A stretch of DNA of 26,286 nucleotides from a virus (lineage: Duplodnaviria; Caudoviricetes), in the IMG/VR virus record IMGVR_UViG_3300030098_000859, positions 1 through 26,286 of that record, one strand, 5' to 3'. The stretch's first letter is position 1. Every line of letters begins with the position of its first letter. The position numbers and the translations under genes were made by a program. Positions 6,158 to 26,286 of this stretch are shown piece by piece. The notes below the pieces were generated by a model, which was given only the letters and a program-made list of their open reading frames with translations, made no database searches and was not told the DNA's origin.

Positions 6158-8887
6158 ATGCCAAAGCAGATATTTCAAATAAAAGATTTCAGTGGTGGAC
6201 TGAACACTTTAAAGGACCCTGCTGATATAGCAAATAACGAACTCCAAGATATTGAAAATCTTAGGGTCGATAAACAAGGTTCTATATCTGCTGCTTATAT
6301 CAATACAGACTCTACCAATAATAAGGTAAGTGCTTATAACAGTTCACACATTTCAACAATAGAAGCTGGGTATGGTCTTGGATATCTTGAAACAGATCAC
6401 GTAAGAGATCCTGTTACAGTTTCTCAAACAAGTTCTATAGCAGGAGATGATGACAATGAAGGTTCTGCCTATGGATTTATTGCACGTCAAGTTGGTGGTG
6501 AATATAAAGAATTAGAATACAGATCAAACGGTACTCAGCAAAATCTAGCTAGTTCATTTCCTATTGGAACTCAAGTATTGCTTACGTCCACAACGTTTAC
6601 AGCAGATGGACTAAGCCCTGAGTCTCAAGGTGTATATACTGTAGTTGATACAAATGGTAGCAATATCATATTTGATAAAGCTTTATCTATTAATATCGAA
6701 ACAGCACCTCAAGACTTTTGGGGTGCAACCCTTAAAGGAACTGCTTATGGGGATCAAGTTATATTATTAGCCAATCCAGCAGAGCATAAAATAGATACTT
6801 ATTCTGTTAATACAGCTGGTACAAATTGGCAAGAAGACAGCATAACATTAAGGTCAGATGCTAGTGGAACGAATTCAAAGGTAAAATATTATACAGTTGA
6901 AGATGCTATTAGGTGTTGTGATACTGCAGATAAGAACAATTCTAAGATACAGTGGTATGGATGGATACAGAGAAGACACTTTGAAAAAACGGCTGCTGCA
7001 AGTAGCTGGAAAGGCGATACTGGAGATAACTCTTATTTAGCATATTACGCAAAAGATAATACGTTAGCAAAGCCAACTCAAGGACATGTAAAATCATCCA
7101 CAGGAACAGCTGGAGTTCTTGTTAAGTACAAAAGCTCAGATGGTGCAACGTACGATTCTTTAGACGCTGGTACTGGATTCAATGTAGCCATAACCACCGA
7201 AACAGACGTAGACGGGCTTATATCTTCTGGTATATATGAACTTGCTCAAACATTTGTATATGATGGAAATCAAGAATCGCTACCAACTGTCTATACTGAT
7301 ACACATACAATAACCGAATCAGATGACCTTAAAGTTCTTTCATTATGTATTGGAACAGTTGGACCGTTTGATCCTAGAATATCTGGTGGTAGGATATATA
7401 TAAGAAAGCAGGATACAGATGAAGAATGGGTAATGCTTGTAGATATCGACCTTACAAAAGGATGTAGAACCAAGTTCACAGACGATCATAGTGTATGGGA
7501 TAATGGTATATTTACACCTACTGGAACAACGGGCAATAGCAGTACATCCATAACGAGCGTATCTGATGTTACTTATTTAGTAGATGGGATGACCATAACT
7601 GGTGGCAATATAGAAGCGGGCACAACAATAGCAAGTCATAATGGAAGTAATGTTATTACTTTATCTCAAAATACTGCAAGTAGTGGTGGTGGCTCTACCA
7701 CATTGACCATATCTGGTGGAGTATATTCTTGTCCAGATTTTAATCATGCTGCTAATAATTTTATAGTAAAGCAACTAGGTGCTATTACTTACGAAATGAT
7801 CAATGGTTTTTCTTCTAATATATTTAGTCATGCTATAGGTGATAGTGGTGAATATTGGAAAGATGTTGTTGTCGCTAATAATAGGGCTTTTGTTTGCAAC
7901 GTAAATATAAAAGATGAAAATACAGGTTTAACAAAAGAAGGGTCAACAACAACACATTTCCCAGATAGGATCATGTATTCAATGCCACATAGATATGATA
8001 CATTTCCTTATCATAATTTTATCGAAGCCGCTAAAGGTGATGCAGATTCATATACTGCAATAGATTCATATGGCGATAGGCTATTAGCCTTTAAACGATA
8101 CAGTCTTGACATTATCAACATAGCCAATCCAGATGATACAAGCTGGTTCTTAGAAGAATCTAGAAAATACATGGGCGTAGGCAATCCTGAAGCTGTTAAA
8201 CGAACTCAGTATGGTGTTTTATGGATAAATCAGCAAGGGATCTATTTATATAATGGTCAACAGATACAAAATTTATCAGAGAATAAATTAAGCCCATCAA
8301 CAATAAGTGGGTTGGTAACTACTTCTACAGGTATCATATATGACGAACTAGAATCTCTTGCCTATATTATCAAGAGCTTAAGTGGTGCAGCGTCTGGTAT
8401 AACAGTAGATCTTAGAAAAGGAACCTTTGTCAAAACAACAGATTTTGTAAGCGTTGCTAATGACGGAAATACAAACCCAATAGATACAGATAATAATATT
8501 TTAATAGCAAATGATAGCGGAGCTGCTGTTGATTTTTACAAGCTGTACCGAACAGTGGCTGCTAATACTTGTGAATTTGAAACAAAAGAATATGATTTCG
8601 GTGATCCATCTACCACAAAAAAAGTATATGCTGTTTACGTAACCTATAAATCAGACAATGCTTTAACTGGTTATTTTACATTACAAGAAGACGATGGTTC
8701 ATCGCATGCTTTAAGTGGTACTATTGCTTCATCTGCTACGAATTGGGCAACTGTAAAGCTTACTCCAAGTTCTCCAGTTGTATGCAATAAGATAGCAGTA
8801 AAAATGGATACAAGCTCAAATAATAGAAAGGTTTATATTAACGATATAGGTATTGAATATAGAATGCTTAAGAAAAGAGCTGGTTAA
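6158..8887 (+). CDS. Tail tubular / stabilisation (nozzle-like) virion protein
   Basis: 909 aa; N-terminal IKDFSGGLN typical of podovirus tube-B/P22 gp10-like proteins; beta-propeller-like segments (DRIMYS, DRLLAFK, GIYLYNG) and C-terminal FETKEYDFGDPSTTKK. Confidence 0.7.
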   Translation: MPKQIFQIKDFSGGLNTLKDPADIANNELQDIENLRVDKQGSISAAYINTDSTNNKVSAYNSSHISTIEAGYGLGYLETDHVRDPVTVSQTSSIAGDDDNEGSAYGFIARQVGGEYKELEYRSNGTQQNLASSFPIGTQVLLTSTTFTADGLSPESQGVYTVVDTNGSNIIFDKALSINIETAPQDFWGATLKGTAYGDQVILLANPAEHKIDTYSVNTAGTNWQEDSITLRSDASGTNSKVKYYTVEDAIRCCDTADKNNSKIQWYGWIQRRHFEKTAAASSWKGDTGDNSYLAYYAKDNTLAKPTQGHVKSSTGTAGVLVKYKSSDGATYDSLDAGTGFNVAITTETDVDGLISSGIYELAQTFVYDGNQESLPTVYTDTHTITESDDLKVLSLCIGTVGPFDPRISGGRIYIRKQDTDEEWVMLVDIDLTKGCRTKFTDDHSVWDNGIFTPTGTTGNSSTSITSVSDVTYLVDGMTITGGNIEAGTTIASHNGSNVITLSQNTASSGGGSTTLTISGGVYSCPDFNHAANNFIVKQLGAITYEMINGFSSNIFSHAIGDSGEYWKDVVVANNRAFVCNVNIKDENTGLTKEGSTTTHFPDRIMYSMPHRYDTFPYHNFIEAAKGDADSYTAIDSYGDRLLAFKRYSLDIINIANPDDTSWFLEESRKYMGVGNPEAVKRTQYGVLWINQQGIYLYNGQQIQNLSENKLSPSTISGLVTTSTGIIYDELESLAYIIKSLSGAASGITVDLRKGTFVKTTDFVSVANDGNTNPIDTDNNILIANDSGAAVDFYKLYRTVAANTCEFETKEYDFGDPSTTKKVYAVYVTYKSDNALTGYFTLQEDDGSSHALSGTIASSATNWATVKLTPSSPVVCNKIAVKMDTSSNNRKVYINDIGIEYRMLKKRAG

Positions 8888-9561
8888 TGGATAGGGTTTC
8901 TAGGTTTATAAATAATAGAAAGCAAGATAAGATACGAGTTGTAAATGCTCAACCATCTTTACAGTCTATGAGAGAAGGCGAAGAGGTGTTATTCTTTAAT
9001 CGTAAGGGAGTGCTTTCGAGGTATAGAAAAGAACGAGGCATATTATGGCGTTCTGATATGTATAAGAACAACGATCTAAATGTTGAAGAAACTCTCAATG
9101 CTTCCAATTTAAAATACTCTTCAACCTTTATAGACTACAGATATTTTATACATAATTTTTCAGACGATATAAATACAGATACTCATTATATTCCTTGGCA
9201 AGGAACTGGAGAACAAACGTCTCCAGATAATTCAACATCTTCTTTTTTAGTTCCTTACAAAATGACCTGTCATAAAATATTATTTAGACCTGAAACTTTG
9301 TCTGACGCAACAGCTGACTTTGAATTTAAGATAGTAAAGCAAGATGATGGAGATACAACAAGGGATACTGTTTCTACTTTTACATACACAACAACACTTT
9401 CTAGCGATACATTGATAGAGATAAATCAATCAGATTGGGATAATTCTCCAACTGTAGAAGCTGGAGACAAGGTTTCTATTTATTTAGACGCAAGCACTGA
9501 TCCATCTGGAACTATAGATTGGTTTATAACTTCTGTATGGAAAGTGACCATAAGTATATAA
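8887..9561 (+). CDS. Putative tail/virion structural protein
   Basis: 224 aa, TAATG-coupled to the tail gene; beta-rich acidic C-terminal domain. Confidence 0.55.
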   Translation: MDRVSRFINNRKQDKIRVVNAQPSLQSMREGEEVLFFNRKGVLSRYRKERGILWRSDMYKNNDLNVEETLNASNLKYSSTFIDYRYFIHNFSDDINTDTHYIPWQGTGEQTSPDNSTSSFLVPYKMTCHKILFRPETLSDATADFEFKIVKQDDGDTTRDTVSTFTYTTTLSSDTLIEINQSDWDNSPTVEAGDKVSIYLDASTDPSGTIDWFITSVWKVTISI

Positions 9562-9608: not shown

Positions 9609-10670
9609 ATGTCAAGTTACGCACAACTCGCAATGGCAGCTCAAGAAGCACAAGATAGAGCTGCTTTTAAAGCCGCTGAAAGAAAAGAATCTTCTAGGCG
9701 TGGCAGAGCAGCGAAAGCTGGTGGCTGGGGAAGGCTTCTCGGTATGGGTTTAGCTGGTCTTGCAACTGGTGGAATGGCTCCGCTTATTCAAGCTGGTCTT
9801 ATTGGCTTAGGTGGATTAGCTGGTCGTTCTATTGGTAGAGCGGCAGCGGGTGGAAGAGAACGTGATGCTGACAAGAATATAGATGCTCTTTTTCGTCAAG
9901 GCGATCAAGAGGCATTTAAAGAGAATATTGAAGATTATCAAAAAGGTACAAGAGAAAGAATGCTGGTAGATGCTGGGAAAGATGCTTTCTCTGCTTTTAC
10001 TATGGCTAAATATTTTAAACCTCATCTTGCAAAAGCAAAAGCATCGCTTGGAATAGGAGGAGCCGGTACTGGTCTTCCGCCTGAAATGGCAGAAGAAATA
10101 GCAAGGGCAAAAGGTGCTTCTGAATATTTAGCTGGTGCAGATGCGGGAATGTTTGGGGAAGCTGGATTTAGCAAAGCCGATCCAACTAGCTGGGCTAGAA
10201 CTCCTGCTGCATCTACTCTTGGTCCAATGACAGATCCCGGTCCCGTTAATACGGTTGGACCTTATGGGGTTGACCCTGTCCAACAATTTGGAACAGACCC
10301 ATTAGGTGTAAATGATGATCCGTTAAGTAATGTACCTAGTCCTTATAGTCCAACTGCACCAGACCTGTATGGAAGTTCTGCAGAGAATTATTCTAATGCT
10401 GTTGCAAGAGCTCAGGCAATGAGCGATCAAGGAATGTTAAGTCCTGAAATTAGACAGTCTTTAGGTTTGACCAGTCAAGCAGATCAGGTTATGAGCAATG
10501 CTTATGCAAATAATTATGCACAGCTTTCAAATATGAGCCTAGATGAATTTGATGCAATGATGAATGCACAAGATGGGAACTTGTTAGACTTGACTGGTGG
10601 TAATCCTTATCAAATGAACCAGCAATTTAATCCATATCAAACAACACCTCAACCAATGACAATATATTAA
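9609..10670 (+). CDS. Putative internal virion / ejection protein
   Basis: Gly-zipper hydrophobic stretch (GMGLAGLATGGMAPLIQAGLIGLGGLAG), Ala/Gly/Met-rich, Cys-free, with a Pro/Gln/Asn low-complexity C-terminus; follows the tail genes. Confidence 0.6.
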   Translation: MSSYAQLAMAAQEAQDRAAFKAAERKESSRRGRAAKAGGWGRLLGMGLAGLATGGMAPLIQAGLIGLGGLAGRSIGRAAAGGRERDADKNIDALFRQGDQEAFKENIEDYQKGTRERMLVDAGKDAFSAFTMAKYFKPHLAKAKASLGIGGAGTGLPPEMAEEIARAKGASEYLAGADAGMFGEAGFSKADPTSWARTPAASTLGPMTDPGPVNTVGPYGVDPVQQFGTDPLGVNDDPLSNVPSPYSPTAPDLYGSSAENYSNAVARAQAMSDQGMLSPEIRQSLGLTSQADQVMSNAYANNYAQLSNMSLDEFDAMMNAQDGNLLDLTGGNPYQMNQQFNPYQTTPQPMTIY

Positions 10671-11206
10671 TGAACGGTAATCCTCAACATACAAATCCTT
10701 GGCTTCAATCTGCTCTTGGTAATACAACTAATCCCAATATGGACTTTCAAAGCTTTCTAGAAAGCAGAGGAATTGAAGTTGATCCTACGAAACTAGGAAA
10801 GTTCTTTACTGGTATATCAGACGAATATCAACAAGATATTGGAATGGCTAGAGCAGGTCTTCAACAGACATGGGATCAAGCAAGAGCTGGTGCTATGGGT
10901 CAAATGTTTGGATTAGGTGGTGGTCAAGGTTTTGGTTCTGTAGGAGGCGGAGGTTTTGGAAGGCAAGGTTATAACCTTAATAGAAGTATTGGTGGTATCA
11001 ATACAGCTTATGGTCAAAATATGGAATCAGGTCTTTTAGGATTTGCACAAGATAGCTTAAGTGCAAAAAGAAGAATGGAATCACAATTTATGGATGTTGC
11101 AAGCGGATTATTAGCAAGAGACGCAGCTGGAATAGGTAACTATAGAGCACCAGATATGCAACCGGACGATTACGATGAACAGTCAGATCAAGACTGGTTT
11201 CGTTAA
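10670..11206 (+). CDS. Putative internal virion / ejection protein
   Basis: 178 aa, Gly/Gln-rich (GLGGGQGFGSVGGGGFG), Cys-free, translationally coupled. Confidence 0.55.
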   Translation: MNGNPQHTNPWLQSALGNTTNPNMDFQSFLESRGIEVDPTKLGKFFTGISDEYQQDIGMARAGLQQTWDQARAGAMGQMFGLGGGQGFGSVGGGGFGRQGYNLNRSIGGINTAYGQNMESGLLGFAQDSLSAKRRMESQFMDVASGLLARDAAGIGNYRAPDMQPDDYDEQSDQDWFR

Positions 11207-11218
11207 AAGGAGTATATA

Positions 11219-11848
11219 ATGTCACAATATCAATCAGGCGAATATATAAATGAATTCTTAAATCAAATGCCTACGCTTCTTCTTACTATGCGTAAGATGG
11301 ATGTAGACCAAATGCTACAGACAAGAAAGCTAGATCAACAAGACAGGGTTATCAATCTTGATGCACAAAGATTTGCTTTTGATTCTACTATGAGAGATAG
11401 GCAAATGAATATTATGGAAGCCGAAGCTGGTAGAGCTGGTGAGTTATTTGCAGAAGAAAAGAAAGGTCGTCAAGCTTGGAGAAAGGTAAAAGAACCATTA
11501 ACCCAAGCAATGAAACAAAGAATGCAATTAGATGAAGAATATAGAAAGCAAAAAGAAGATATGCCGTTTAAACATTGGTGGCGACCAAATGAAGAAAGTT
11601 GGCAAATATTCGGAAAAGATATAATCAAGTCCGAAAGGCAGATCGCTAAAGATATTGCAGAAGAAAAATATGGAAAGCCAAAAGAAGCTAGTGAAGTTTT
11701 TGGAGACGTTGAGTCTATTAGTAAAGACCTTTCCCCAGAGCAATTCATGAGTATATATAGCAATCCATATTTTCAACCACAAATGCTTGGTAAAACAGGG
11801 CTTATGGGGCTTGCGTCTGCACCAATGGCAGGTGGATATTATCCTTAA
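11219..11848 (+). CDS. Putative internal virion protein (helical, Gln/Met-rich)
   Basis: 209 aa, AGGAG 11208-11212, Cys-free, coiled-coil-like. Confidence 0.55.
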   Translation: MSQYQSGEYINEFLNQMPTLLLTMRKMDVDQMLQTRKLDQQDRVINLDAQRFAFDSTMRDRQMNIMEAEAGRAGELFAEEKKGRQAWRKVKEPLTQAMKQRMQLDEEYRKQKEDMPFKHWWRPNEESWQIFGKDIIKSERQIAKDIAEEKYGKPKEASEVFGDVESISKDLSPEQFMSIYSNPYFQPQMLGKTGLMGLASAPMAGGYYP

Positions 11849-11857
11849 GGAGTTATT

Positions 11858-12538
11858 ATGGCATTAAGTTTTGTAGCTGTACAAGAATTAAATCGTAGAT
11901 ACAATGAAGACCCTCGGTCTTTTACAGACCAAGAGGCTGAAATGATAGCGGGTCTTTCTAATCAATTTGGTCTAGAATTTCAACGAGAATCAAAGCCTCT
12001 TCAAAAAGGAGCGTTTGATTTTGCTGATATAGCAGCTTTTGGTTTATTGCCGAATGAATGGCGACCTACAACCAGAGGCGAAACTGTATACGGAGAAACT
12101 GGTCGTGATAAATTAGCTGGTGATGTAGGTTCTTTAGGTGGATTACTTGGTGCAGTGGGTACTGCTACAGGTATATATCGTGGCATCAGAGGATATCGAG
12201 CAATGAAAAAAGCTCCCGGCTTTAGCCCAGAAGGTGGTGGAACAGCACCCGCAGGAGATATAGTTCGTAAATCATCTGAAGGTATTACGAATACAGGTCG
12301 AGGCTTATTACCTCCTTACGAAGGTGGTGGTGCTTTGGTTCCAGCTCCTTTACAATTAACTGGTAGGCTAGGATTACCTAGTCCACCAACTCCACTTCAA
12401 TTAACTGCTGGTGGTCGCAATCTTCTACCTCCTTATAGAACAAGCAGTGTAGGTGACTATATGCAAACAAGAATTAATGACCTATTAATTGGACAGGGAG
12501 CATCTCCAAATATGAGTTTCGGACCTACGTATTTGTAG
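11858..12538 (+). CDS. Putative internal virion protein sharing its N-terminal domain with the giant RNAP protein
   Basis: AGGAG 11848-11852; residues 8-45 align ungapped with residues 10-47 of the 2758-aa protein; Gly-rich hydrophobic helix; Pro-rich tail. Confidence 0.6.
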   Translation: MALSFVAVQELNRRYNEDPRSFTDQEAEMIAGLSNQFGLEFQRESKPLQKGAFDFADIAAFGLLPNEWRPTTRGETVYGETGRDKLAGDVGSLGGLLGAVGTATGIYRGIRGYRAMKKAPGFSPEGGGTAPAGDIVRKSSEGITNTGRGLLPPYEGGGALVPAPLQLTGRLGLPSPPTPLQLTAGGRNLLPPYRTSSVGDYMQTRINDLLIGQGASPNMSFGPTYL

Positions 12539-12546
12539 GTTAAACA

Positions 12547-15500
12547 ATGGCACTCTATAGCGAGTCATATCGTGTCAAAAAGCTTATTGACATGTATAGG
12601 GCTAATCCTATGCAGTTCACAGAAGAACAGGTTGATGAGCTTCAGGAAATAGCACAGCAAGTAGATCTCAAGTTCAATCGAGTATCTTCAGATTTCAATC
12701 TTCGTAATACAGTAGAAACAGCTATCGGTGGTGTAGCCGAAGGCTTTACTACTATTCCAGTTGGCAGAGAACCTCGTAATACATATGAGGCTATCGCACA
12801 TTCCCTTGGTCACTTAGTTGGTTTCGCTCCCGGTATAGCAGCTATCCCTCTTAAAGGAATGGCTAGGGGTGCATCCAAACTTGGTATGATGGGCGTAGAA
12901 AGAGCATTAGAAAAAGGTGCTTTTGGTGCACAGGTTGTTAACAAGTTCTCTGTTCCTATGCTATTTGGTGATAAAGCAAGTGACCTTGTAAACAAAGGTA
13001 TATCCAAAGCTGGTCTTGAATCCCTTGAATATATGAAACGTGGTAGTGCAGCTCGTGGTGTTTTCAACGATGCTGTTCACTTAGGCGTTGCTAGTGGTGT
13101 TAGTAGTTTCTGGGGCGGACCAGATCAGATACTTAATTCAATGATACATGGTACAATAGCAGGTGGTGCATTTGGCGGTCTTGGAAACTTTAAGCAGATA
13201 GGTACTTTATTACAAAGTAAAAATTATGCGAATCATGAAAGAGCAGAACGCATGATCAAGACTGGTATTGGCTCAATGATAACAGGACTGCCTACAACTC
13301 TTCAAGATATGCCTATAGAAATGCAGTTATATCAATATTTATTAGGCGGATTCTTTGGATACCAAGCAAGACCTTCTTATGAAAAAGAGGGAATGAAATT
13401 CTACGCAGAGGATATTGCATCAGGTAGACCAGATAGGGTATTCTATCCTGAGAAGAATCCTGAGTTTGACAAGCTATCTAAAGATACAAAATCATATGTA
13501 TATAAACAGGCAGCAGATCAGGCTCGTATCAGCATGATGAAGACAGGTGCTTGGGAAACAAAAGAAGAATTGGAGATCCATTTAGCTACTGCCGCAGAAA
13601 AAAGATATGGCAGAAAGCCAACCGAAGAAGATATAAATAACATAGCACGTGAACAGGCTGGTAGGATAGTTCAAGGTGGTATTGTTATTGACCTTAAAGA
13701 ATGGGAAGATCCATTTCCAGAGCAAGAATCAGACCCTAGGTCATCTGCAAGAGAACAGATGCTTGTTCAGATCTTTAGAAAAGATGGTAAACCCGATGGA
13801 CCAATAATAGGCATAGAAGCTATTCCCAGAGGCGGTGATTATAAAGGTACTAAAATGGATGGTATCTCTCCCGTTACAAAAGATGGTAAAGCGTGGGATA
13901 TTCCAGCAGATATACTAGATGGTAGAGAATTAATAACCCTTCAATATATTAATGTTTCTGGTAGAAAAGATTCTGATGGTCGTATCATTGTAACAAAGCC
14001 CTTCAAGGGCGTTCCAAACTTTAAGACTGGTAAGCTTGATTACAATGTAAAAGAACATGACTGGTATGCAATAGAAGATCACCTTGCTTCAAATAATATG
14101 TATATAGATGGAGGTGTTAAAGATAAGGGTATTTTAAAAGTAAGTGTTTTTCACCCTGATATTAATCAGATCAGATTTGATACAATGGTTGAAAATTTAG
14201 CAAGGGGTCAATTAAGAGAAGCCTTAGAAAAAAATCCTAACCTATCTGCTGGTGAGCAGAAAAGATTATTGAACCAATATAAAAGCGAACTATATGATAA
14301 CTACAATCAAAGTGAACGCAAAGAATTAGAATGGTTCGGAGATGCTATTGAATCAGAGGTTATGGAACGTAATATAATCGATAGACATAAAAAATCTTGG
14401 AAAAGCAATGTTTTATGGGAAGCACAGCGTCATGGATTATATACAGTAGGTGGAGATGAACGTGGCTTTACTATGATAGGTAATCTTATGAATAGTAAAG
14501 TTGGTGCTAGGAATGTTGTTGACAGAAATAAACGTGAACAAATGTTCCACACTAAGAATATTCCTTTGAATTTTGATATCAATGGAAAGAATACTTTAAA
14601 CATTACTGTGTTAAAAGATTATGTACCCAAGGAAAATGAATTCCCAGATATGTGGTACAAACAAGACGTTAAAGAAGCAGACGGTAGCGTTAAAACATAT
14701 AAGTATCCATATGAATCTCAAACAGATGGAACTATATATATAAGACAAGACGTTTGGAATGAGATAGTAAAGAATTCAGGATTTAAAAAAGGTGAAGAAT
14801 TCGTTAGAGATCTCATGGAAGATTCTGGAATGCTTAAGCCTAGTATTGTGACCAGAACAGAAACGGGTGTTTTAATAGGTAAGTCTGCTGGTAGAAAAGC
14901 ATCAGATTCTATGAATGAGTTTATGTTACAGAATGATCTTGATGTGATTCTAATGTCTTCAGCCGCAAAACATAAAGGCGGTATTAAAGAAAGTAAATAC
15001 GATTATGTAGATGGAAGACATGTGGCGTTAGGCGAATTAGATATTAGACAAATGCCTATTTCAGACTTTAGACTAGACCTTGGTGTCTATGAAAATCCTA
15101 TCAAGTCTGTATCTCCTCAAATGATAGTAAGACAGTTATTTGGAAACCTTAATGAACAGCAACATGGTAAGATATCTGAGCATGTATTTAAAACTTTTTA
15201 TGAACCTCTTATCGATGGAGACCCAGTTCAGAATGCAAAAATAGAACAATACATTAAAGATCCAACATCTGGTATAGACTTTAAAAAATTAAACGTAGAC
15301 CAGATATCACTTAAAAATATTCATTCTATCCTAACATCTGAGGGTAAAGAATTAAAAGATTTAAGAACACACATACGTGATCATATCATGCGTGTATCCA
15401 CAGAACGTGATCAAGGGGAAGCTGATCTTAATTTCACAGATGACCAATGGCGGGACTATATATTTAGAAATAAAAGAATATTTCATACCGTAGGAACAAC

Positions 15501-18500
15501 AGACGCAGTTGCTGATGGCTTTAAAGCAACTAGTAAGTTTTGGGAACATACTTACAAAAGATATATGATAGATAGGTATTTAAGACCTAAATGGAAGTAC
15601 TCTGGCAAGGGTTGGGCTATGCCATATGGTGTAGAAGAATTAAGAACCATGAAGATCAATGAAGGTGAATTCATGATGGATGACGGGATGAAAAGATTTC
15701 CCGTTGATTTTGACGCTAAAATAGTAAAGGCTATACTACCTAAGAAAAAAGGAAATAAAGCCTACCTTGGCGAAATTTGGCGTATTAAACAGATGCTTAA
15801 CAACCCAGCTAAGGTAAATAAAATGAAAGAAGCTGGTATCTATAGTAAAGTAAAGAAAGCTATTGATAAGTTTGATAGCGAATTTGTTGTTATACGTGTC
15901 CCTGCTGATTCATCAAGTGGTGCTAGGGTTCTTGTCTTTAAAGGGTTTACAGGTAGAAAAGGTAACGCTGTTTTAACTCACCCTAAAGACGATGCTTATC
16001 TAGGCGGTATGGATAAGGATTCAGATTCAGTATTTATTTATCATGGGTTCGACAGTAAGGTAAAGAATGCTTATAAGAAAGTTAAGAATGAATGGGAAAA
16101 AGACGGTAAGGTCATAGACGGAAAGTCTAAGGACATGGATCCTATATTCAATGACGTTTCCGACCAAGATACTTACCTACATCCAGCTAGTATATTTTCT
16201 CCATCTATGAGAAAAGAGGTTGCAAGGAATGTATATGAAGGCAATAATGGTATAGGCTGGGCTATCAATAATAGAACAACTATCCAAGCTTTGGTTGACA
16301 TGGCAGCAGCAAATGACGGAAAGCTTGTAGTTGATATACATCCCAAATTAAAGAATGATGCTGGAAAAGAAACATTCAAATTGAATTATGAAAGAAATCT
16401 TGGACAATACATATTAACCCTTAAGCCGAATGCAGGTGAGAACGTAAGGCTTTATGGTAGAGAAATGCTTAACCGTTCTGCAGATGCTGGTAATTATCCT
16501 AAAATGAGATCATATGTGCGGTTTCCTAGGTTGTTATTTGAACAGGCTTTTGATGTAGAATTCAAGCCTGCGTCTTGGATGAATGATCCTAAGTATGAAG
16601 CAATGAGAGATACATTTGCTCAGGCAGATTATCAAAGAATTAAAAGCAATACAGACCTTGGAAAGCTTTATAAGATGGGTCAAACAATGAAGCCTAATGC
16701 TATGAGTAAAAAGGGAACTGGAGAATCAATGGATCTTGCAGAATTCCAAGAAAGGCTTTTTGGTGATACTCAAGTTGGTCCCAATTTTAAATACAAGTTT
16801 CCAAATATAATGACCCTTATTACTTATAAGGCACGTAAGGATGGTGTGCATAAAATGATATTCACACATCCTCACGATTCAAATATAAACCTTATTAAGT
16901 CTTTAGATAAGCTCATAGCAGAAGATCCATTAGCAAGAGAACTTGCTGGAGATAGATTGATATCTTTATCAAAGAACCTAGAAGCATTAAGGCAGAAGGC
17001 AGCGTTAACAGGAGACTGGAAAAACCTTACTGAAATGCTACAGAAAGAGAATCTTAAAATAGCAAGCTTTATGGCTTTGGTTAAAAAAGCTCATGCTATA
17101 GAAGCTAAGATACTTGCTGAGGGTGGTAATGCTGCAGACGTTAAAAGAAATTTAAAATCACTTGCAGATAAAGCAGATATTATAAAAAAGAAATATCAAA
17201 ATATCGACCGTGACCCAGAAGGCGAACATAAGAATACTTATTTTACAGATTATGATAGCGAAGTTGTTGCTCTTAAAAATAGCATAAGACAAGAACTGGG
17301 TGAGAAAGGTATAGACCCTACAAAATTTGAAGAATATTTAGATATATATTTACTTAGTCCATTTGCAAAAGGTCAGCGTTTTGGGATCTTCAGTAGGATA
17401 CCTTGGCAGTCTCCACAGATAGGTAACAAAGCTGTTAAAGATGTGTTCAATGAGCTAGATGTTGTAACAACATTAGCTAAGAAACCTGCAGTTAAACAGG
17501 CAGATAAAATAGAGGCTTTTAAAGAATATCTACATAGACCATCTAACTATGCTAAAATAGATGATAGTTTTACCAAGTTCATGGGACAAGACTTTGTAGG
17601 TGATCCTGTATTTGATGCTAAGGTCAAGCGATTAAAAGATCACATGGCAGAACATCCTTACTGGGCTGAACATCCAGAAGATGCTTTCATTATGTATACG
17701 TATGAATTCGAGGCTGCTCCTAGAGACTTTAGCACCATGACAAAGAACGATGTTTCAAACCTCTTAAGATTCTTTGAATACTATAATCCAAAGTTCAAAG
17801 AAGGTTGGATAGATAGATTTGTAAAAGACAATTTTCCATCAACTAAAGATAGAGATCCTATGCGTATACAAAGGATATTCTATTATAATAGACCTACAAC
17901 CTTAGATAAAAAGACACTGGCTTATGAGGTCAATATATTCAAGCAAGCCAATATGCCTGTAAAAAGTAAGGACAGGGTTGTTATAAGAGATGTAAAGCGT
18001 GTTATGTCTACGCACGGTGCGATGCGTGAATGGTTAAGTAAGATGGTGAGTCAATCTGAGAATGAGGTTTCTACAGTATTAAATAAGATGGATGAGTCTA
18101 CATACAGAACCTTATCAGGTCTTACGCCTAATGAACGAGTTGAATTGTTCAATAAGGCTGTAGATATAATGGAAGGCAAGACCACACTTGATAAGATACC
18201 TAAAGAATATTTAAATAGAACATTCAATATAGAAGAAAAAGGTCAGCAAAAGAAATTTACTGGCAAGCAAATGCTTGAATCTTTGACCAGAAGGATACGT
18301 GATGATCTTGAAGAATTTGGGAATGAGTATGTTTATCTTTCAGATAAATGGGATAAGGTAGAGACTGATATAAATACAGCTACTGTTGTAAAATTAAATG
18401 ACTATATGATATGGCGTAATGGAAAGTTTGATTTTGAGAATTTTTATAAGAAAGTAATTAGACCAGCTTGGGAAGGTAAGGACATAAAAAATATACCCCT

Positions 18501-20823
18501 TGAAGCTATATACAGAGCACAGTACGAGTACAGGCTTGAGCAGATTATAGGCAATAAGAATAAAAATGAATTATTCAAAGCTAGTGGATTAAGTAAAGGA
18601 TCGGATATTAGAAAGGCATACAGAGAGGGTAATCTTAAAAACAAAGATGGTAAGAAATTAGATACAAAGTTTAGACCTATAGGAAGATATAATAAGGAAA
18701 CATATTTTCCACATGTTTGGAGAACTAGGCTAACCAAAGCAGAGAAAAGAAAGCTACAAGCTCATGAACAAGAGCTTTATGAAGCAGAATTATCAAAAGC
18801 CTTGAGCAAACCAGAAGAGGTTATAGAATATCTAGAAGCTCAAGCTAGATTAATGAATCCAGAATCCTCTGAAAAATTAACTAAGATCATAGATGCTTAT
18901 AAAGATACAAAGAATATTGATCTGTTACGCTCTGTTTTAGAGCCTGCTTTAAGAAGTAAGTACCAATACTTAAGTGATGCTATGTCACATCCAACAAAGT
19001 TTGGTGAGTCTCATATGCATGAAGCACTTGTACAGGTAGATATGACATCTAAAGATGTTGCTGGTATTATTTCCGACTTAGTTCGTATCGGTTTCTTTTC
19101 AAGACCTAAAAATATACTTGAAAGACAATCAGAATATCCAGCCTATATGAAAGAATATGATGCTATTAAAATGTATAAAGAAGGCGTTGTTAAGTCTAGG
19201 TTAAAAAACCTTGCTGCACTTATGGGAGATGTTGAAATAGACAGAATGACAGCAAAAGAACCTTTTGGTAAGTACACAAAGGATCATGCTGAATTTTACC
19301 GCATGTACCTACGGGATTCTCTTGGATACAAAACAACATTTTCTGATTGGGTATTGAGGTCAATGGAGAATAGTGACCCTCTAAAATTAAAAAAGAATAT
19401 GTACTATCAGACAAGCGATCATGAGATGATACAGAAGCTTGACCGTATATTAAAATTCTTTGGCACTGATAAACTCCCATTTAATCTTCCTAAGAACGAT
19501 CAAGCGAGAGCTGAGAAATTGGCTAGGATCATACATGACCTAGGTGCAGTAGAAGCAAAGTTTCAGTTATTGACATTACTTGCTAATACTGGTGTTGCTA
19601 CTGGTAATTTATTTGGTGGTTCTTTGAATACAGTTACAAAGACAGGTCTTAGAAATTTTCTAAGGTCTACAAATTTTAAATATCTTGAAAAGAATATCCT
19701 TAAGAATGAGAATGGCGACTATCAATTAAAATTTAAAGATGGAAGCTTTGTAAAAACAAAGAAAGACCTGAAGAGGTGGATCATTGAGAAAGGTGTTATA
19801 GAACAATATATAAAGAACGAACTTGATTTCAACCCAAAAGTAAGGGTGATGAAAAACAAGAAAGCTCTTTATGAGTTCGCTAAAGATTTCAATAAGCTCT
19901 TATTAAAGAATCCAGATCCTAATAAAGAAACGATCATGGAGCTTGCCCGTAGGCACGGTCTTACTGAAAAGATACTTGAGCTAGGAGCATTCCCCATGCA
20001 GGCATCTGAAAGATGGCTTAGGGCTAATGCATTCTTATCTCACATGCTGCAGATGAGAGATAGTTTTAATGGTATGGCAGGTCAATTAGATCTGAATAGT
20101 GATGCAGTTATAAAACATGCATTGAAAGGTGTGGAAGCAACGCAATTCGTTTATCATAGTGTTGGCAGAAGTGCTTTTATGCGTACTGCTACTGGTAAGG
20201 TTCTTACAAGATTCAAGAACTATGTCCAGAATCAAATAGCATTTCAAAGAGAGATATATAGACAGGCTAAGTTGTACGGGTTCAAACCCGGTACTAAAGC
20301 TCATGATGATTTTCAACGTCTATTTGTTATCAATGCAATGCTTATGGCATTAGGCTCTGCATATGCATATAGCCTTTTTGATGTAGCTACTCCTCCTCCA
20401 TTTGACTGGATGATCGAGACTGGTGAATTGATGTGGGGAGATAAGAGAGAGCGAGAAAGAGCTTTCTTTGGTACATATCCTAGGGCTATTGCACCGCTCC
20501 AAATCATTACTCCACCTATTGCACGTATACCTCAAAGTTTAGTAATGTTACTCAATGGAGATTGGGAAAGATTTGCAGATTACCAAGCTTGGACATTATT
20601 TCCTTTTGGAAGATTCGCAAGGTCTGTTGATAAAACATTCAACGAACCTTACGGCACAACCTTTGGTAGGGGTATGCAACAGTTTGTAAGGATCCCAACA
20701 GATAAATTCAGACGGGATTATGACAGAGCACAGTTGGAAAAAATGCGTAAAGAATACATAGAATCAACCATCGATGACCTTTATGAATCTGAAGGTGAAG
20801 ATTGGGACAATAAGGAGAATTAA
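12547..20823 (+). CDS. Giant virion protein containing a single-chain two-barrel (DPBB) DNA-dependent RNA polymerase; putative virion RNAP
   Basis: Ordered motifs: TDG (D727), GK779, DVILMSSAAK808, VVIRVP (R1117), YLGGMDKDSD (D1156/D1158/D1160, nt 16012-16026), GIGWAINN (G1235), NRSAD (1309-1313). Gly-rich hydrophobic N-terminal region and an ejection-protein-like helical C-terminus. Confidence 0.8.
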   Translation: MALYSESYRVKKLIDMYRANPMQFTEEQVDELQEIAQQVDLKFNRVSSDFNLRNTVETAIGGVAEGFTTIPVGREPRNTYEAIAHSLGHLVGFAPGIAAIPLKGMARGASKLGMMGVERALEKGAFGAQVVNKFSVPMLFGDKASDLVNKGISKAGLESLEYMKRGSAARGVFNDAVHLGVASGVSSFWGGPDQILNSMIHGTIAGGAFGGLGNFKQIGTLLQSKNYANHERAERMIKTGIGSMITGLPTTLQDMPIEMQLYQYLLGGFFGYQARPSYEKEGMKFYAEDIASGRPDRVFYPEKNPEFDKLSKDTKSYVYKQAADQARISMMKTGAWETKEELEIHLATAAEKRYGRKPTEEDINNIAREQAGRIVQGGIVIDLKEWEDPFPEQESDPRSSAREQMLVQIFRKDGKPDGPIIGIEAIPRGGDYKGTKMDGISPVTKDGKAWDIPADILDGRELITLQYINVSGRKDSDGRIIVTKPFKGVPNFKTGKLDYNVKEHDWYAIEDHLASNNMYIDGGVKDKGILKVSVFHPDINQIRFDTMVENLARGQLREALEKNPNLSAGEQKRLLNQYKSELYDNYNQSERKELEWFGDAIESEVMERNIIDRHKKSWKSNVLWEAQRHGLYTVGGDERGFTMIGNLMNSKVGARNVVDRNKREQMFHTKNIPLNFDINGKNTLNITVLKDYVPKENEFPDMWYKQDVKEADGSVKTYKYPYESQTDGTIYIRQDVWNEIVKNSGFKKGEEFVRDLMEDSGMLKPSIVTRTETGVLIGKSAGRKASDSMNEFMLQNDLDVILMSSAAKHKGGIKESKYDYVDGRHVALGELDIRQMPISDFRLDLGVYENPIKSVSPQMIVRQLFGNLNEQQHGKISEHVFKTFYEPLIDGDPVQNAKIEQYIKDPTSGIDFKKLNVDQISLKNIHSILTSEGKELKDLRTHIRDHIMRVSTERDQGEADLNFTDDQWRDYIFRNKRIFHTVGTTDAVADGFKATSKFWEHTYKRYMIDRYLRPKWKYSGKGWAMPYGVEELRTMKINEGEFMMDDGMKRFPVDFDAKIVKAILPKKKGNKAYLGEIWRIKQMLNNPAKVNKMKEAGIYSKVKKAIDKFDSEFVVIRVPADSSSGARVLVFKGFTGRKGNAVLTHPKDDAYLGGMDKDSDSVFIYHGFDSKVKNAYKKVKNEWEKDGKVIDGKSKDMDPIFNDVSDQDTYLHPASIFSPSMRKEVARNVYEGNNGIGWAINNRTTIQALVDMAAANDGKLVVDIHPKLKNDAGKETFKLNYERNLGQYILTLKPNAGENVRLYGREMLNRSADAGNYPKMRSYVRFPRLLFEQAFDVEFKPASWMNDPKYEAMRDTFAQADYQRIKSNTDLGKLYKMGQTMKPNAMSKKGTGESMDLAEFQERLFGDTQVGPNFKYKFPNIMTLITYKARKDGVHKMIFTHPHDSNINLIKSLDKLIAEDPLARELAGDRLISLSKNLEALRQKAALTGDWKNLTEMLQKENLKIASFMALVKKAHAIEAKILAEGGNAADVKRNLKSLADKADIIKKKYQNIDRDPEGEHKNTYFTDYDSEVVALKNSIRQELGEKGIDPTKFEEYLDIYLLSPFAKGQRFGIFSRIPWQSPQIGNKAVKDVFNELDVVTTLAKKPAVKQADKIEAFKEYLHRPSNYAKIDDSFTKFMGQDFVGDPVFDAKVKRLKDHMAEHPYWAEHPEDAFIMYTYEFEAAPRDFSTMTKNDVSNLLRFFEYYNPKFKEGWIDRFVKDNFPSTKDRDPMRIQRIFYYNRPTTLDKKTLAYEVNIFKQANMPVKSKDRVVIRDVKRVMSTHGAMREWLSKMVSQSENEVSTVLNKMDESTYRTLSGLTPNERVELFNKAVDIMEGKTTLDKIPKEYLNRTFNIEEKGQQKKFTGKQMLESLTRRIRDDLEEFGNEYVYLSDKWDKVETDINTATVVKLNDYMIWRNGKFDFENFYKKVIRPAWEGKDIKNIPLEAIYRAQYEYRLEQIIGNKNKNELFKASGLSKGSDIRKAYREGNLKNKDGKKLDTKFRPIGRYNKETYFPHVWRTRLTKAEKRKLQAHEQELYEAELSKALSKPEEVIEYLEAQARLMNPESSEKLTKIIDAYKDTKNIDLLRSVLEPALRSKYQYLSDAMSHPTKFGESHMHEALVQVDMTSKDVAGIISDLVRIGFFSRPKNILERQSEYPAYMKEYDAIKMYKEGVVKSRLKNLAALMGDVEIDRMTAKEPFGKYTKDHAEFYRMYLRDSLGYKTTFSDWVLRSMENSDPLKLKKNMYYQTSDHEMIQKLDRILKFFGTDKLPFNLPKNDQARAEKLARIIHDLGAVEAKFQLLTLLANTGVATGNLFGGSLNTVTKTGLRNFLRSTNFKYLEKNILKNENGDYQLKFKDGSFVKTKKDLKRWIIEKGVIEQYIKNELDFNPKVRVMKNKKALYEFAKDFNKLLLKNPDPNKETIMELARRHGLTEKILELGAFPMQASERWLRANAFLSHMLQMRDSFNGMAGQLDLNSDAVIKHALKGVEATQFVYHSVGRSAFMRTATGKVLTRFKNYVQNQIAFQREIYRQAKLYGFKPGTKAHDDFQRLFVINAMLMALGSAYAYSLFDVATPPPFDWMIETGELMWGDKRERERAFFGTYPRAIAPLQIITPPIARIPQSLVMLLNGDWERFADYQAWTLFPFGRFARSVDKTFNEPYGTTFGRGMQQFVRIPTDKFRRDYDRAQLEKMRKEYIESTIDDLYESEGEDWDNKEN

Positions 20824-20825
20824 AA

Positions 20826-21098
20826 ATGGCATTTAGAAAAGATCAATTTGGTTTTGGTACAGAGCAACCAATAAGCCAAGAAGATCTATTAAAGATGGAA
20901 CGATCTAAGCTGGATAAGCTTTTGTCTATGGGAGAGATAACTCAAGAAGAGTTCACTAGAATGTACAAACAATTACAGGATACTATATCTGGAATTGAGA
21001 AGGCAAAGAGCACTGGAGTTGTTTCAAACATACAGCCATCAAATAAAGATGAATTTGAATTATTTGGGGTAAGCTCAGAAGGTGCAAAAAGGTATTAA
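20826..21098 (+). CDS. Small protein with SHOCT-like motif
   Basis: AGGAG 20813-20817; KLDKLLSMGEITQEEFTRMYKQL matches the L..L...G.I[TS].EEF SHOCT pattern. Confidence 0.55.
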   Translation: MAFRKDQFGFGTEQPISQEDLLKMERSKLDKLLSMGEITQEEFTRMYKQLQDTISGIEKAKSTGVVSNIQPSNKDEFELFGVSSEGAKRY

Positions 21099-21100
21099 CT

Positions 21101-21520
21101 ATGATGGGATTACTTAAACTACTTGGACCCGGAGCACTCGCAGCAGGTGCGGGAGCATACGGAGTAGACAAGGCTACTGAAGCCATGACAGGTGGTGGAA
21201 TACAATTTGATCCTTGGGGTGAGAAAAGAGAAGCCTATGAAAGAGATCTTGGTTCAAAGTATATAGAAGAAGAAGCTTATCAAAGAAGCAAAAAGAAACA
21301 AGAAGAGGCGTATGAAAGAAGCAAAGGGGATAAAGATTCTTTTGGATACGGTACTGTTAAGCTTAGAGATTCTGATTGGCTTGATATTGAACATAAAGGA
21401 GAAAAATATAAACTTGCAAATATTCCAGAGGTTCAGGAAGTAATGCAAAGTGCTACCATGTTCAACATGCAAGATGTCTTTGACAATCTTTTAGATCAAG
21501 GCTACATTAAAAAAGCATAG
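21101..21520 (+). CDS. Hypothetical protein with Gly/Ala hydrophobic N-terminus
   Basis: 139 aa; LLGPGALAAGAGAYG, then three EAY[EQ]R repeats. Confidence 0.6.
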   Translation: MMGLLKLLGPGALAAGAGAYGVDKATEAMTGGGIQFDPWGEKREAYERDLGSKYIEEEAYQRSKKKQEEAYERSKGDKDSFGYGTVKLRDSDWLDIEHKGEKYKLANIPEVQEVMQSATMFNMQDVFDNLLDQGYIKKA

Positions 21521-21906: not shown

Positions 21907-22953
21907 ATGAAGATAGTTAAAGACTCAGATGGTAATATAATAGGTTGCCGTCATTGCGGATCACGTTCTATTCATAAAAGCGGTTTTGTTTATAGAGCCG
22001 AATCAAAAAAACAACAATGGTTATGTACTGCTTGCGGCAGGAAAACATTAAAACCTAGCATTCTTGAAGAATCTCCTTTTTCTGGCGAGAAAAAAGAAAG
22101 TGAGTTATTAAATATTGACGAACTCATTGAAATGCGTAAGAAAAAGTATGAGCAAAAGACCAGATCAAAAGAAGATAGAAAACTATACAATATAAAGATC
22201 AACATGAAAGGTCCTATAGGGATATGCCATTTTGGTGATCCTCATATTGATGACGATGGTACTAACATCGCTGAAATATATTCTTTGTGTAATCTTATAA
22301 ATAAAACAGAAGGTCTTTTTGGTGGGAATCTTGGTGATGTACAAAATAACTGGATAGGTAGATTATCCTATTTATACGGACAGCAATCTACATCAGCAAA
22401 AGAAAGCTGGAGACTAACAGAGCATTTTGTAAATCAAGTTGAATGGTTATATCTGGTTGCTGGTAATCATGATGTTTGGTCAGGGGATGGTGATCCTTTA
22501 GAATTTATTATGCGAGATCACAAGGGAGTCTATGAACAATGGGGTGCTAGGCTTAATCTTTCTTTTCCAAATGGAAAAAAAGTAAGAATAAATGCTAGGC
22601 ATGTATTCAAAGGTAATTCAATGTGGAATACTGCTCATGGTGTAGCTAAAGCAGCACAGATGGGATGGAAAGACCACATTCTTACGTGTGGTCATACACA
22701 TGTTTCAGGTTATCAGGTTCTTAAAGACCCAGCATCGGGTTTGATATCACATGCTTTACAGGTAGCATCATTTAAAATGATAGATCAATATGCAGATAAG
22801 CTTGGTCTAGATGATAAAAATATATTCAACGCTCCTGTTACGATCATCGATCCTAAGTACGATGATGACGATAATAGATTGATCACTACCATATTTAATC
22901 CTTACGAGGGTGCAGAATACCTTACGTATAAAAGAAAAAAGGCTCTCGGTTAA
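21907..22953 (+). CDS. Calcineurin-like metallophosphoesterase with N-terminal Zn-ribbon
   Basis: All five motifs present: GDPH (DxH), LGD, AGNHD, ARH, GHTH. N-terminal CRHC...CTAC. Confidence 0.85.
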   Translation: MKIVKDSDGNIIGCRHCGSRSIHKSGFVYRAESKKQQWLCTACGRKTLKPSILEESPFSGEKKESELLNIDELIEMRKKKYEQKTRSKEDRKLYNIKINMKGPIGICHFGDPHIDDDGTNIAEIYSLCNLINKTEGLFGGNLGDVQNNWIGRLSYLYGQQSTSAKESWRLTEHFVNQVEWLYLVAGNHDVWSGDGDPLEFIMRDHKGVYEQWGARLNLSFPNGKKVRINARHVFKGNSMWNTAHGVAKAAQMGWKDHILTCGHTHVSGYQVLKDPASGLISHALQVASFKMIDQYADKLGLDDKNIFNAPVTIIDPKYDDDDNRLITTIFNPYEGAEYLTYKRKKALG

Positions 22954-22964
22954 GAGAGCCTTTT
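22937..22964. terminator. Bidirectional intrinsic terminator between convergent operons
   Basis: AAAAGGCTCTC-GGTTAA-GAGAGCCTTTT, a perfect 11-bp inverted repeat with a T-tract on both strands. Confidence 0.85.
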
Positions 22965-24831: not shown

Positions 24832-26286
24832 TTATATTTGTTGAAAACTAAAGGTATTGTAGTCGAATGACATTTTAACTTCAAATGAGCTTTCATCCCT
24901 TGTACCAAGAGACGATATTATTCTCATGTTGTCGTTTTCCACGCCTTGTTCAAATCCTATGACCTTATCAGCTTTTTGTTCTATAACAGAGTTTCCCTTG
25001 AAACTATGAATACCTAGTCTTTCTCCATTCTCTAGTTGCTGTGCAGCATACTTTGATATGTGAGATATGCCAAAGATTATTATCTTATGTCTATTGGCTA
25101 GGCTTTTTAGTTCCTTTATGATAAAGTTTTGTCGTTCATATTCATCATTGTAATACTTAGCGGGTATGGTGTCTATAGTGTCTATTACCAGCATTTTTGG
25201 TGAATAAGTTTCTATTACTTTATCATAATCACGTATGTCAGGAGAATCGTCAGTTACATGTATATGATTCATACTTTCTCTTAGGTACTCATCATACTCA
25301 TGATTCCAATTATCGAAGCTTTCTTTGTTGATGCTTAAAGCACATTGAAAGAATCTTCTACATATCAGATCTTCGTTTACCTCCAATGACATGAACGCTG
25401 TCTTTACATCGGGAAATTGTGATATGATCCATTGTACAAATGCTGTCTTACCTATCTTAGTGTTTCCACCAAGAATAGCAAGTTCTCCAGCCTTGAATAC
25501 ATAATCATCGGACAAAGCCATGATGTCTTTAAAGTTGAATTGACTATTGTATTTAGATTCTTCTATATATTTCTTATAAGATTCTATCATCTGGTCAACA
25601 TTCTTTAATTGGACACCATGTCCATAGTCCTTAAGACTGTAGTATTTACATTTAGGATCACAGTGTTTTTCTAGTATTTCATCTTGACAAGTATATTGAT
25701 ATCCTTGTTTAAAAGTGTCTATTACTACTCTTTCTACTTCTTCATCAGGGAAATCGTCTGGATATGTAGCTATCCAGTTCTTTGCAAGTAAAATACATTG
25801 TTCCTGCGTAAAGCCTTTCCTACGCCATATAGACACTAGCCTAAGTAATGTTAAGTGCCTATTGGCTACCCTAGCACCGTTATTTGTTATGTGTTGTCCA
25901 CATGTAACGTCACTATTTGTAGGGTATTTAGAATTACTAAGAACCTTACGTTCTTCAGGAACTTCTTTTCTGCTATATTCCATTGGCTCCCAGATCACTT
26001 TAAAATCGTTCAACAATGGTGGTTTGTCATATCGCAGTTCTTTACAATATTCTACTACTCCTTCGTAATTCATTTCTAAGAATTGATCGTTGGTCAAGTA
26101 GTTTTTATAAAGATTTGTCTTTTTGTTCAGTGAATAAGGTAGTCTTATTAACCGTTTTGGATCGTATATAAGGTCTACCATATCTCCAAAGTCACGTGCT
26201 ATGGTACTTTTTACTTCCCGTGCCACGTTCTCTGATGGTTCAAATCCATAAAGATTTGGTATTACAATATGAAATCCTCTTCCACT
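24832..26286 (-). CDS. Primase-helicase: AEP primase + Cys-containing accessory domain + SF4 (DnaB/T7 gp4-like) helicase, 5'-truncated
   Basis: The frame is open to the window edge and begins SGRGFHI (AEP motif II), then DLIYDPKRLIRLPYSLN (motif III region). Walker A GGNTKIGKT, Walker B LVIDT, and ISHISK...FKGNSVIEQKAD (SF4 H3/H4). Confidence 0.85.
   Translation of the reverse strand, partial: SGRGFHIVIPNLYGFEPSENVAREVKSTIARDFGDMVDLIYDPKRLIRLPYSLNKKTNLYKNYLTNDQFLEMNYEGVVEYCKELRYDKPPLLNDFKVIWEPMEYSRKEVPEERKVLSNSKYPTNSDVTCGQHITNNGARVANRHLTLLRLVSIWRRKGFTQEQCILLAKNWIATYPDDFPDEEVERVVIDTFKQGYQYTCQDEILEKHCDPKCKYYSLKDYGHGVQLKNVDQMIESYKKYIEESKYNSQFNFKDIMALSDDYVFKAGELAILGGNTKIGKTAFVQWIISQFPDVKTAFMSLEVNEDLICRRFFQCALSINKESFDNWNHEYDEYLRESMNHIHVTDDSPDIRDYDKVIETYSPKMLVIDTIDTIPAKYYNDEYERQNFIIKELKSLANRHKIIIFGISHISKYAAQQLENGERLGIHSFKGNSVIEQKADKVIGFEQGVENDNMRIISSLGTRDESSFEVKMSFDYNTFSFQQI

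Follow-up and report, generated by a model that had tools for sequence, protein, structure and literature searches.

A giant cysteine-free podovirus protein that probably carries a virion-packaged, two-barrel RNA polymerase

A predicted polymerase core within a giant gene

The 26,286-nucleotide stretch of viral DNA analyzed here (IMG/VR record IMGVR_UViG_3300030098_000859, Duplodnaviria; Caudoviricetes; hereafter the window) harbors on its plus strand a giant gene (12547..20823), a 2758-codon open reading frame (ORF) without a single cysteine, whose product is a predicted virion RNA polymerase and ejection protein. An earlier note on this DNA had proposed that a single-chain, two-barrel RNA polymerase lies hidden inside this protein, and all nine motifs that it named are found in the 2758-residue chain where it had put them: NKREQMFHT (residues 661–669), ITVLKD (686–691), D727, K779, K808, R1117, D1156/D1158/D1160, G1235, and N1309. 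The distance from R1117 to the DxDxD motif is 39 residues, as claimed, and this DxDxD is the only one in the entire protein.

These motifs fall within a core that we modeled as residues 601–1451 (14347..16899, plus strand, as are all features of the giant gene). The first, β-like double-psi β-barrel (DPBB; residues ≈672–847, 14560..15087) carries D727-G728, K764, K779, and K808. D727, K779, and K808, which the earlier note had named, are indeed conserved and are joined by a third conserved lysine, K764. We take D727, K779, and K808 to be the counterparts of the Asp and two Lys of cellular polymerases. The second, β′-like barrel (residues ≈1017–1168, 15595..16050) carries R1117-x-P1119 upstream of the predicted Mg-binding loop, D1156-K-D-S-D1160 (16012..16026). 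Two helices follow in the model as assigned by DSSP, one long (residues 1219–1254, 16201..16308) and including GIGWAINNR, and one shorter (residues 1296–1313, 16432..16485) and ending in NRSAD, with D1313 invariant; from their order, they are likely the bridge helix and the base of the trigger loop, respectively.

To gauge conservation, we aligned the window core with 51 of 53 homologs (1754–3151 residues) retrieved by a word-indexed search, chosen by phmmer and not by motif and leaving out the self match P0002 and the fragment P0021 (alignment A1; 52 sequences). Mean column identity is 28%, and only 28 of 851 columns are invariant. These include K662, D727, K764, K779, K808, R1117, P1119, G1153, G1154, D1156, K1157, D1158, D1160, A1312, and D1313, and thus every catalytic candidate of the earlier note (D727, K779, K808, R1117, and D1156/D1158/D1160); because so few columns are invariant and the catalytic candidates are among them, the motif agreement goes beyond chance. 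A wider alignment of 64 sequences (A2), with identities down to 18%, still shows K764, K779, K808, G811, R1117, P1119, G1154, the three aspartates, and D1313 as invariant and D727 as conserved at ≥90%; the R-x-P element upstream of DxDxD is therefore invariant in both. A full phmmer scan (E ≤ 0.001) relates 236 clusters to the giant protein. Among 198 fetched proteins, 187 have a catalytic loop with R-x-P upstream, at a spacing of 39 in 175 of the 187 by hand count, and the loop reads DKDSD in 63, DLDGD in 38, DLDID in 27, DKDID in 12, DKDAD in 10, and otherwise in 37. In a tree of 168 cores, which were cut out by the catalytic motif, the DKDSD proteins and some DKDID members share one branch, among the branches listed.

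AlphaFold2 modeled residues 601–1451 with a mean predicted local distance difference test (pLDDT) score of 87.1 and a predicted template modeling score of 0.88. The two DPBBs that the earlier note expected on one chain are present in this model, with isolated DPBB folds matching at two separate sites (model positions 72–247 and 417–568). A Foldseek comparison with the Protein Data Bank (PDB), which that note had suggested, placed phi14:2 gp66 first (E = 4.6e-9), then QDE-1 and RDR2, with cellular β′ at E ≈ 1e-3. In a Foldseek viral library, unnamed proteins score best (TMq 0.65), with crAss-like proteins next. VIA gives QDE-1 a Z score of 17.9 (446 residues aligned, root-mean-square deviation 4.8, model positions 19–838), followed by P74 gp62 (15.6), RDR2 (15.4), gp66 (12.9, 653 aligned), and gp96 (10.3). 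In the Atlas, the nearest named cluster is viral PF05183 RdRP (0.83), which we treat as a lead only; PF05183 is also matched weakly by 5 of 48 catalytic-barrel segments (best E = 0.013). We are highly confident that residues ≈600–1450 adopt a two-barrel polymerase fold. Placement of the aspartate triad beside the first-barrel lysines is implied by the QDE-1 superposition alone.

Standard annotation overlooks this core. Pfam yields no match to the giant protein at E ≤ 0.1; PHROGs yields two weak, unnamed matches to it and no real one for the core; and tblastn finds no match to the core at E ≤ 1 in 50,697 records of cultured phages. The expectation that automated annotation would label the protein hypothetical is thus borne out. 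The best PDB sequence row for the core (E = 1.3) was dismissed as chance.

A cysteine-free block in a podovirus-type genome

The giant protein (P0001) has zero cysteines where 34 would be expected from the other genes of the window. This absence extends to relatives: there is no cysteine in 102,700 residues from 40 of 41 close loci and one in 150,380 residues from 55 of 79 distant loci, counts that skip loci without a long enough piece holding the loop and that are not independent, since the loci are related. Among proteins longer than 2400 residues, 143 of 152 are cysteine-free. The giant gene is preceded by four cysteine-free genes (353, 178, 209, and 226 codons; 9609..12538, plus strand), which likely encode co-ejected proteins and have no family match below E = 0.01 in Pfam, PHROGs, and NF-type profile scans, and is followed by two more (90 and 139 codons; 20826..21520, plus strand) that possibly belong to the same block. 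To the left, the block is bounded by genes of 909 and 224 codons (6158..9561, plus strand) with ordinary cysteine content, which from their position likely encode tail proteins. Family-wide, the +1 position has no cysteine in 4437 and 19,908 residues (two locus sets), and neighbors −1 to −3 have 0 to 1.2 per 1000 residues, compared with 6 to 9 per 1000 in genes further upstream and 12 per 1000 in the large replication genes of the opposite strand.

The giant gene and its neighbors are a sharply bounded cysteine-free block, a published hallmark of ejected proteins. The available text of Lokareddy et al. (PMC11445570) describes cysteine suppression as a conserved trait of the ejection operon of Schitoviridae (N4-like phages) and cites passage through the periplasm as the reason. 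This block lends independent weight to virion packaging, for which gene position was the sole argument of the earlier note. The same suppression makes a Gram-negative host likely.

The C-terminal third of the protein (17881..20820) is modeled as helical (pLDDT 73) and bears a weak likeness to large podovirus ejection proteins, with all matches below significance or cutoff: a PLxRFG profile (NF032893) at residues 2510–2583 (E = 3.5e-6, subthreshold) and, as the best rows of two structure searches, core proteins of phage E1004 (E = 0.2) and the ejectosome of PhiM1 (Z = 6.3 over 262 aligned residues). A hydrophobic segment spans residues 2592–2610. Some homologs carry extra domains, namely AlkB-like 2-oxoglutarate (2OG)–Fe(II) domains in 3 of 12 scanned, DUF4326 in 1 of 12, and cpYpsA, NADAR, helicase, or HhH domains in 6 of 15 in another scan; such additions fit cargo delivered with the DNA. 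Examples are P0024, P0027, P0047, P0022, P0107, P0131, P0132, and P0138, and DUF7831 was also seen.

A near-complete record, G001 (45,971 bp, 95% complete, 99.9% identical to the window), places the block in its genome. One strand encodes the terminase, the portal (P22-like), the capsid protein and adaptor (SU10-type), proteins for tail and lysis, and then the giant protein; the opposite strand carries small early genes, DUF932, ParB-like, and Sak genes, a primase-helicase, and a resolvase. The two strands meet in the window at a two-way, terminator-like hairpin (22937..22964). The giant ORF with its loop is found in 40 of 41 close loci, where gene order agrees over the stretch that each locus covers, and the portal in 38 of 44 records, including all 21 near-complete ones. 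Twenty of these 21 measure 40.1 to 55.2 kb (median 46.5 kb), leaving out G020 (L035), a 73-kb record with two different portal genes that is possibly chimeric; the giant gene occupies about 18% of the genome. A distant clade adds 514 confirmed IMG/VR matches. The large terminase subunit (TerL) is 22 to 26% identical to the best 25 of 743 matches in cultured phages, none of which is crAss-like. The fused primase-helicase is ≈590 residues long (about 590–613 in relatives), with a DnaG family match in none of four proteins scanned and a weak PriCT_1 match in one; in the window (24832–26286, minus strand), it is truncated by the window end.

Known polymerases and competing explanations

The closest functional parallel is phi14:2 gp66, which according to the available text of bioRxiv 2020.03.07.982082 is injected and transcribes early genes. 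Besides its first rank in Foldseek and the longest VIA alignment, gp66 resembles the giant protein in having both barrels on a single giant chain, a fourth loop residue other than Gly, and a late-strand gene with the early genes on the opposite strand. The two differ in sequence (10% identity, no sequence match), loop (DKDSD here, DFDID in gp66), and length (2758 versus 2180 residues), and P0001 lacks HExxH. Further, the genomes are 40 to 55 kb as opposed to 97 kb for crAssphage, and encode the fused primase-helicase with its weak PriCT_1 match rather than a DnaG primase and separate helicases. The crAss-like phages have Ile or Val at loop position 4; P0001 has Ser, and Ile occurs in some distant relatives only. 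The three traits compared here, namely genome size, type of primase, and the loop residue, speak against placing these phages in Crassvirales.

The organization of the block recalls N4 and DEV, in which a giant cysteine-free polymerase with helical flanks likewise ends a block of smaller cysteine-free genes (available text of PMC11445570 and PMC4496689); the N4 core is T7-like and of unrelated fold, unlike the two-barrel core of the window. The cysteine-free ejection operon is common to Schitoviridae and the window phage as a shared trait and is not proof of kinship. The giant protein would work like gp66 but, by these features, falls outside both the crAss-like and the N4 groups. The core also resembles polymerases of Thermus phages (PMC10770324), both gp96 of P23-45, a virion protein with a tape-measure fusion, and the non-virion gp64 / P74 gp62. 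P23-45 is long-tailed with two polymerases, whereas here we find a podovirus-type gene set, one polymerase, and no tape-measure fusion. QDE-1 and plant RDR2 (PF05183), the former with the best VIA score, share the single-chain barrel order, but are eukaryotic silencing enzymes of 10% identity without ejection-type flanks.

Taken together, these data make it probable that the 2758-residue protein is packaged in the virion and ejected into the cell, where, as a single-chain, two-barrel, DNA-dependent RNA polymerase, it would transcribe the early genes. In such a scheme, the giant gene, which stands toward the end of the structural strand in this podovirus of ≈46 kb, would be expressed late and its product packaged with three or four small cysteine-free neighbors; cysteine suppression suggests that these proteins would pass unfolded through the short tail and periplasm, and the helical C-terminal third may, on weak support, form a gp16-like part of the ejection channel. 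In the cytoplasm, both barrels of the predicted fold would form one active site in which, by analogy, D1156, D1158, and D1160 would coordinate Mg2+, and contacts to RNA and NTP would fall to D727, R1117, and the lysines K764, K779, and K808. The enzyme would then transcribe the short early genes of the opposite strand and, in doing so, may draw the DNA into the cell. Late genes would need the host polymerase, because the near-complete genome yielded no further polymerase.

Several observations weigh against this assignment. The core has no real match among PDB sequences by phmmer or profiles A1, A5, and A6; compared as a whole with solved enzymes, the model reaches only low TM-scores (TMq 0.39 to gp66); two loop positions that are Phe and Gly in cellular enzymes are Lys and Ser here; and the C-terminal model has no Foldseek match at E ≤ 0.001 and no VIA match at Z ≥ 8. 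A search of four genomes for T7-type polymerases was empty, though its control was silent too. Finally, VIA places QDE-1 and the non-virion P74 gp62 above gp66, so that the fold alone settles neither the template nor the packaging.

An ejected polymerase might instead be mainly mechanical or replicative, acting as a membrane-anchored genome-pulling motor or a maker of RNA primers while the host polymerase makes early mRNA. A genome-ejection motor has been proposed for N4-like phages (available text of PMC11445570), and the hydrophobic segment near the C terminus and the absence of a DNA polymerase among scanned G001 genes are in keeping with such roles. We consider this unlikely, since the phage carries its own primase-helicase and the G001 early region has no excess of σ70 promoters (19 versus 23.6 ± 4.3 in shuffled sequence); a motor role is in any case compatible with early transcription rather than exclusive of it. 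It is distinctly unlikely that the protein is an active two-barrel polymerase made during infection to transcribe middle or late genes, in the manner of P23-45 gp64 or SPbeta YonO. That possibility draws on the VIA score of P74 gp62 and on the fact that packaging is read from genes alone, but the loci examined place the giant gene close to the far end of the structural strand, where its product would come too late to drive transcription of that strand. The gene is also cysteine-free together with its neighbors and encodes ≈1900 residues outside the core, whereas the P74 gp62 and gp64 chain in the PDB has ≈590 residues. A polymerase of the QDE-1 or RDR2 kind, RNA-dependent or with dual template use, suggested by the first and third places of these enzymes in VIA and the weak PF05183 matches, is very improbable, as the polymerase belongs to a DNA phage that shows no sign of an RNA stage, and gp66 is also closest to QDE-1 and yet DNA-dependent (available text of bioRxiv 2020.03.07.982082). 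A catalytically dead relic retained as a structural ejection protein, to which the noncanonical DKDSD loop might point, is scarcely credible given that the predicted catalytic residues are all invariant down to ≈20% identity and that the loop grades into DLDGD in relatives.

If correct, the assignment to a virion-borne, cell-type polymerase extends such enzymes beyond the crAss-like and Thermus phages to a large group of 40- to 55-kb ocean phages and offers new branches for the question of the origin of eukaryotic RNA-interference polymerases. The natural Gly/Ile/Ser/Ala variation at the fourth loop position also tests the proposal made for gp66, in which a residue other than Gly at this site imposes self-inhibition. 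The full-text literature searched, which leaves most subscription journals outside its coverage, holds no account of this family of giant polymerases, and the family is absent from term searches in PMC5512222, PMC5332604, PMC7886860, and PMC10770324 supplements, with one supplement outside this scope that possibly holds polymerase alignments bearing on novelty.

A repeated early element, host, and distribution

A hairpin followed by a C-rich arm and a T-run is repeated on the early strand of G001 and G004, outside the window. In the close clade, it takes the form YYCY-T6-nTG and lies 31 to 66 nucleotides before early start codons, at L044:7099–11113 (G001), L049:16400–19200 and L050 (G004), and in the early regions of G002, G005–G007, and G009–G012. 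Counting with a pattern that also demanded a downstream ribosome site and start codon, and that was set after matches had been seen and so is not blind, gave 55 early-strand sites in 10 of 11 close genomes versus one on the opposite strand and 0.5 in shuffles; a late-strand control gave one site in 316 kb. An unguided motif search finds the element in 8 of the 11 genomes, and TG, which lay outside the pattern, directly follows the T-run at 33 of 55 sites versus 53 of 555 other T-runs.

The plain reading is that these are intrinsic terminators; at 28 of 55 sites, a stop codon lies no more than 40 nucleotides upstream. That they are a signal for the giant-protein polymerase, marking where it would start or stop, is a speculative alternative that we regard as possible but on balance doubtful. 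In its favor, a gap of 31 to 66 nucleotides between element and start codon could hardly accommodate an additional host promoter, σ70 sites are not enriched, and P23-45 gp96 is reported to use AT-rich promoters. Counting against such a signal are a terminator-like RNA hairpin at 42 of 55 sites (none at 13), the 64 G-T pairs on the sense fold versus 23 on the antisense fold, and the absence of the element from G003 together with seven sense and five antisense sites in 19 more distant genomes, a rarity that makes a promoter role across the family less likely. No motif rises above shuffles in the 11 most distant genomes, with one shuffle each and fewer restarts than in the real runs.

An N4-type promoter is disfavored: promoters of N4 are DNA hairpins on the template strand whose loop is conserved, according to the available text on N4, whereas the loops here vary and the G-T pairs favor the RNA-like sense strand. 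For gp96 of P23-45, the available bioRxiv version of PMC10770324 describes AT-rich promoters and a conserved motif that marks terminators in the gp96 region. The element offers a concrete candidate, whereas for gp66 no early promoter motif was found, as far as the available part of bioRxiv 2020.03.07.982082 goes; if true, it would be the first sequence-defined promoter for a crAss-type polymerase.

Such DNA is present in 20 of the 24 public runs listed, from nine studies, all labeled marine or aquatic; five of these runs may be the source of the window. A metatranscriptome (X20) covers 7 of 30 bins, as contigs only. The GTDB species genomes gave a single match: in a Prochlorococcus single-cell assembly, a phage forms a contig of its own of 46,061 bp (QCPL01000010.1; L052, identical to L011). 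It is a near-complete family member with a core 34% identical to that of the window and two 2OG-Fe(II) oxygenase genes. The single-cell dataset may hold infected cells or co-sorted particles (available text of PMC6122165); the assembly has a single recA, with which a co-sorted particle is still compatible, and the link to a Prochlorococcus host is weak. One could imagine that small marine podoviruses grafted a two-barrel polymerase into a gp16-like ejection protein and so converged on the N4 design, that the polymerase reads the C–T-run–TG signal both as the end of an early transcript and as the start of the following one, and that some of these phages infect Prochlorococcus, a combination that we consider unlikely as a whole.

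Several further features accompany these genomes. At L010:8173–10801, the giant gene is split into a 705-residue ORF and a separate piece near the contig end, which may be an assembly error or a broken copy. Near its left end, the window holds the C-terminal part of a 1167-residue, repeat-rich tail fiber or spike (195–2570, plus strand; PHROG 6002, 4636) that is complete in G001, and the late strand ends with a gene for a zinc ribbon and calcineurin-like phosphoesterase (21907–22953, plus strand; PHROG 7339), to which a gene of 250 to 300 codons between the lysis and tail genes of some relatives may be related. Most distant-clade genomes, including L142, L150, L154, L146, L151, L149, and L143, have unannotated ORFs of 460 to 660 codons in the early region, upstream of the replication genes, which are absent from the close clade. 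Finally, a G+C-rich, noncoding segment with inverted repeats (L044:6820–7070), between a small terminase-like gene and the first early gene, is a candidate packaging site or origin.

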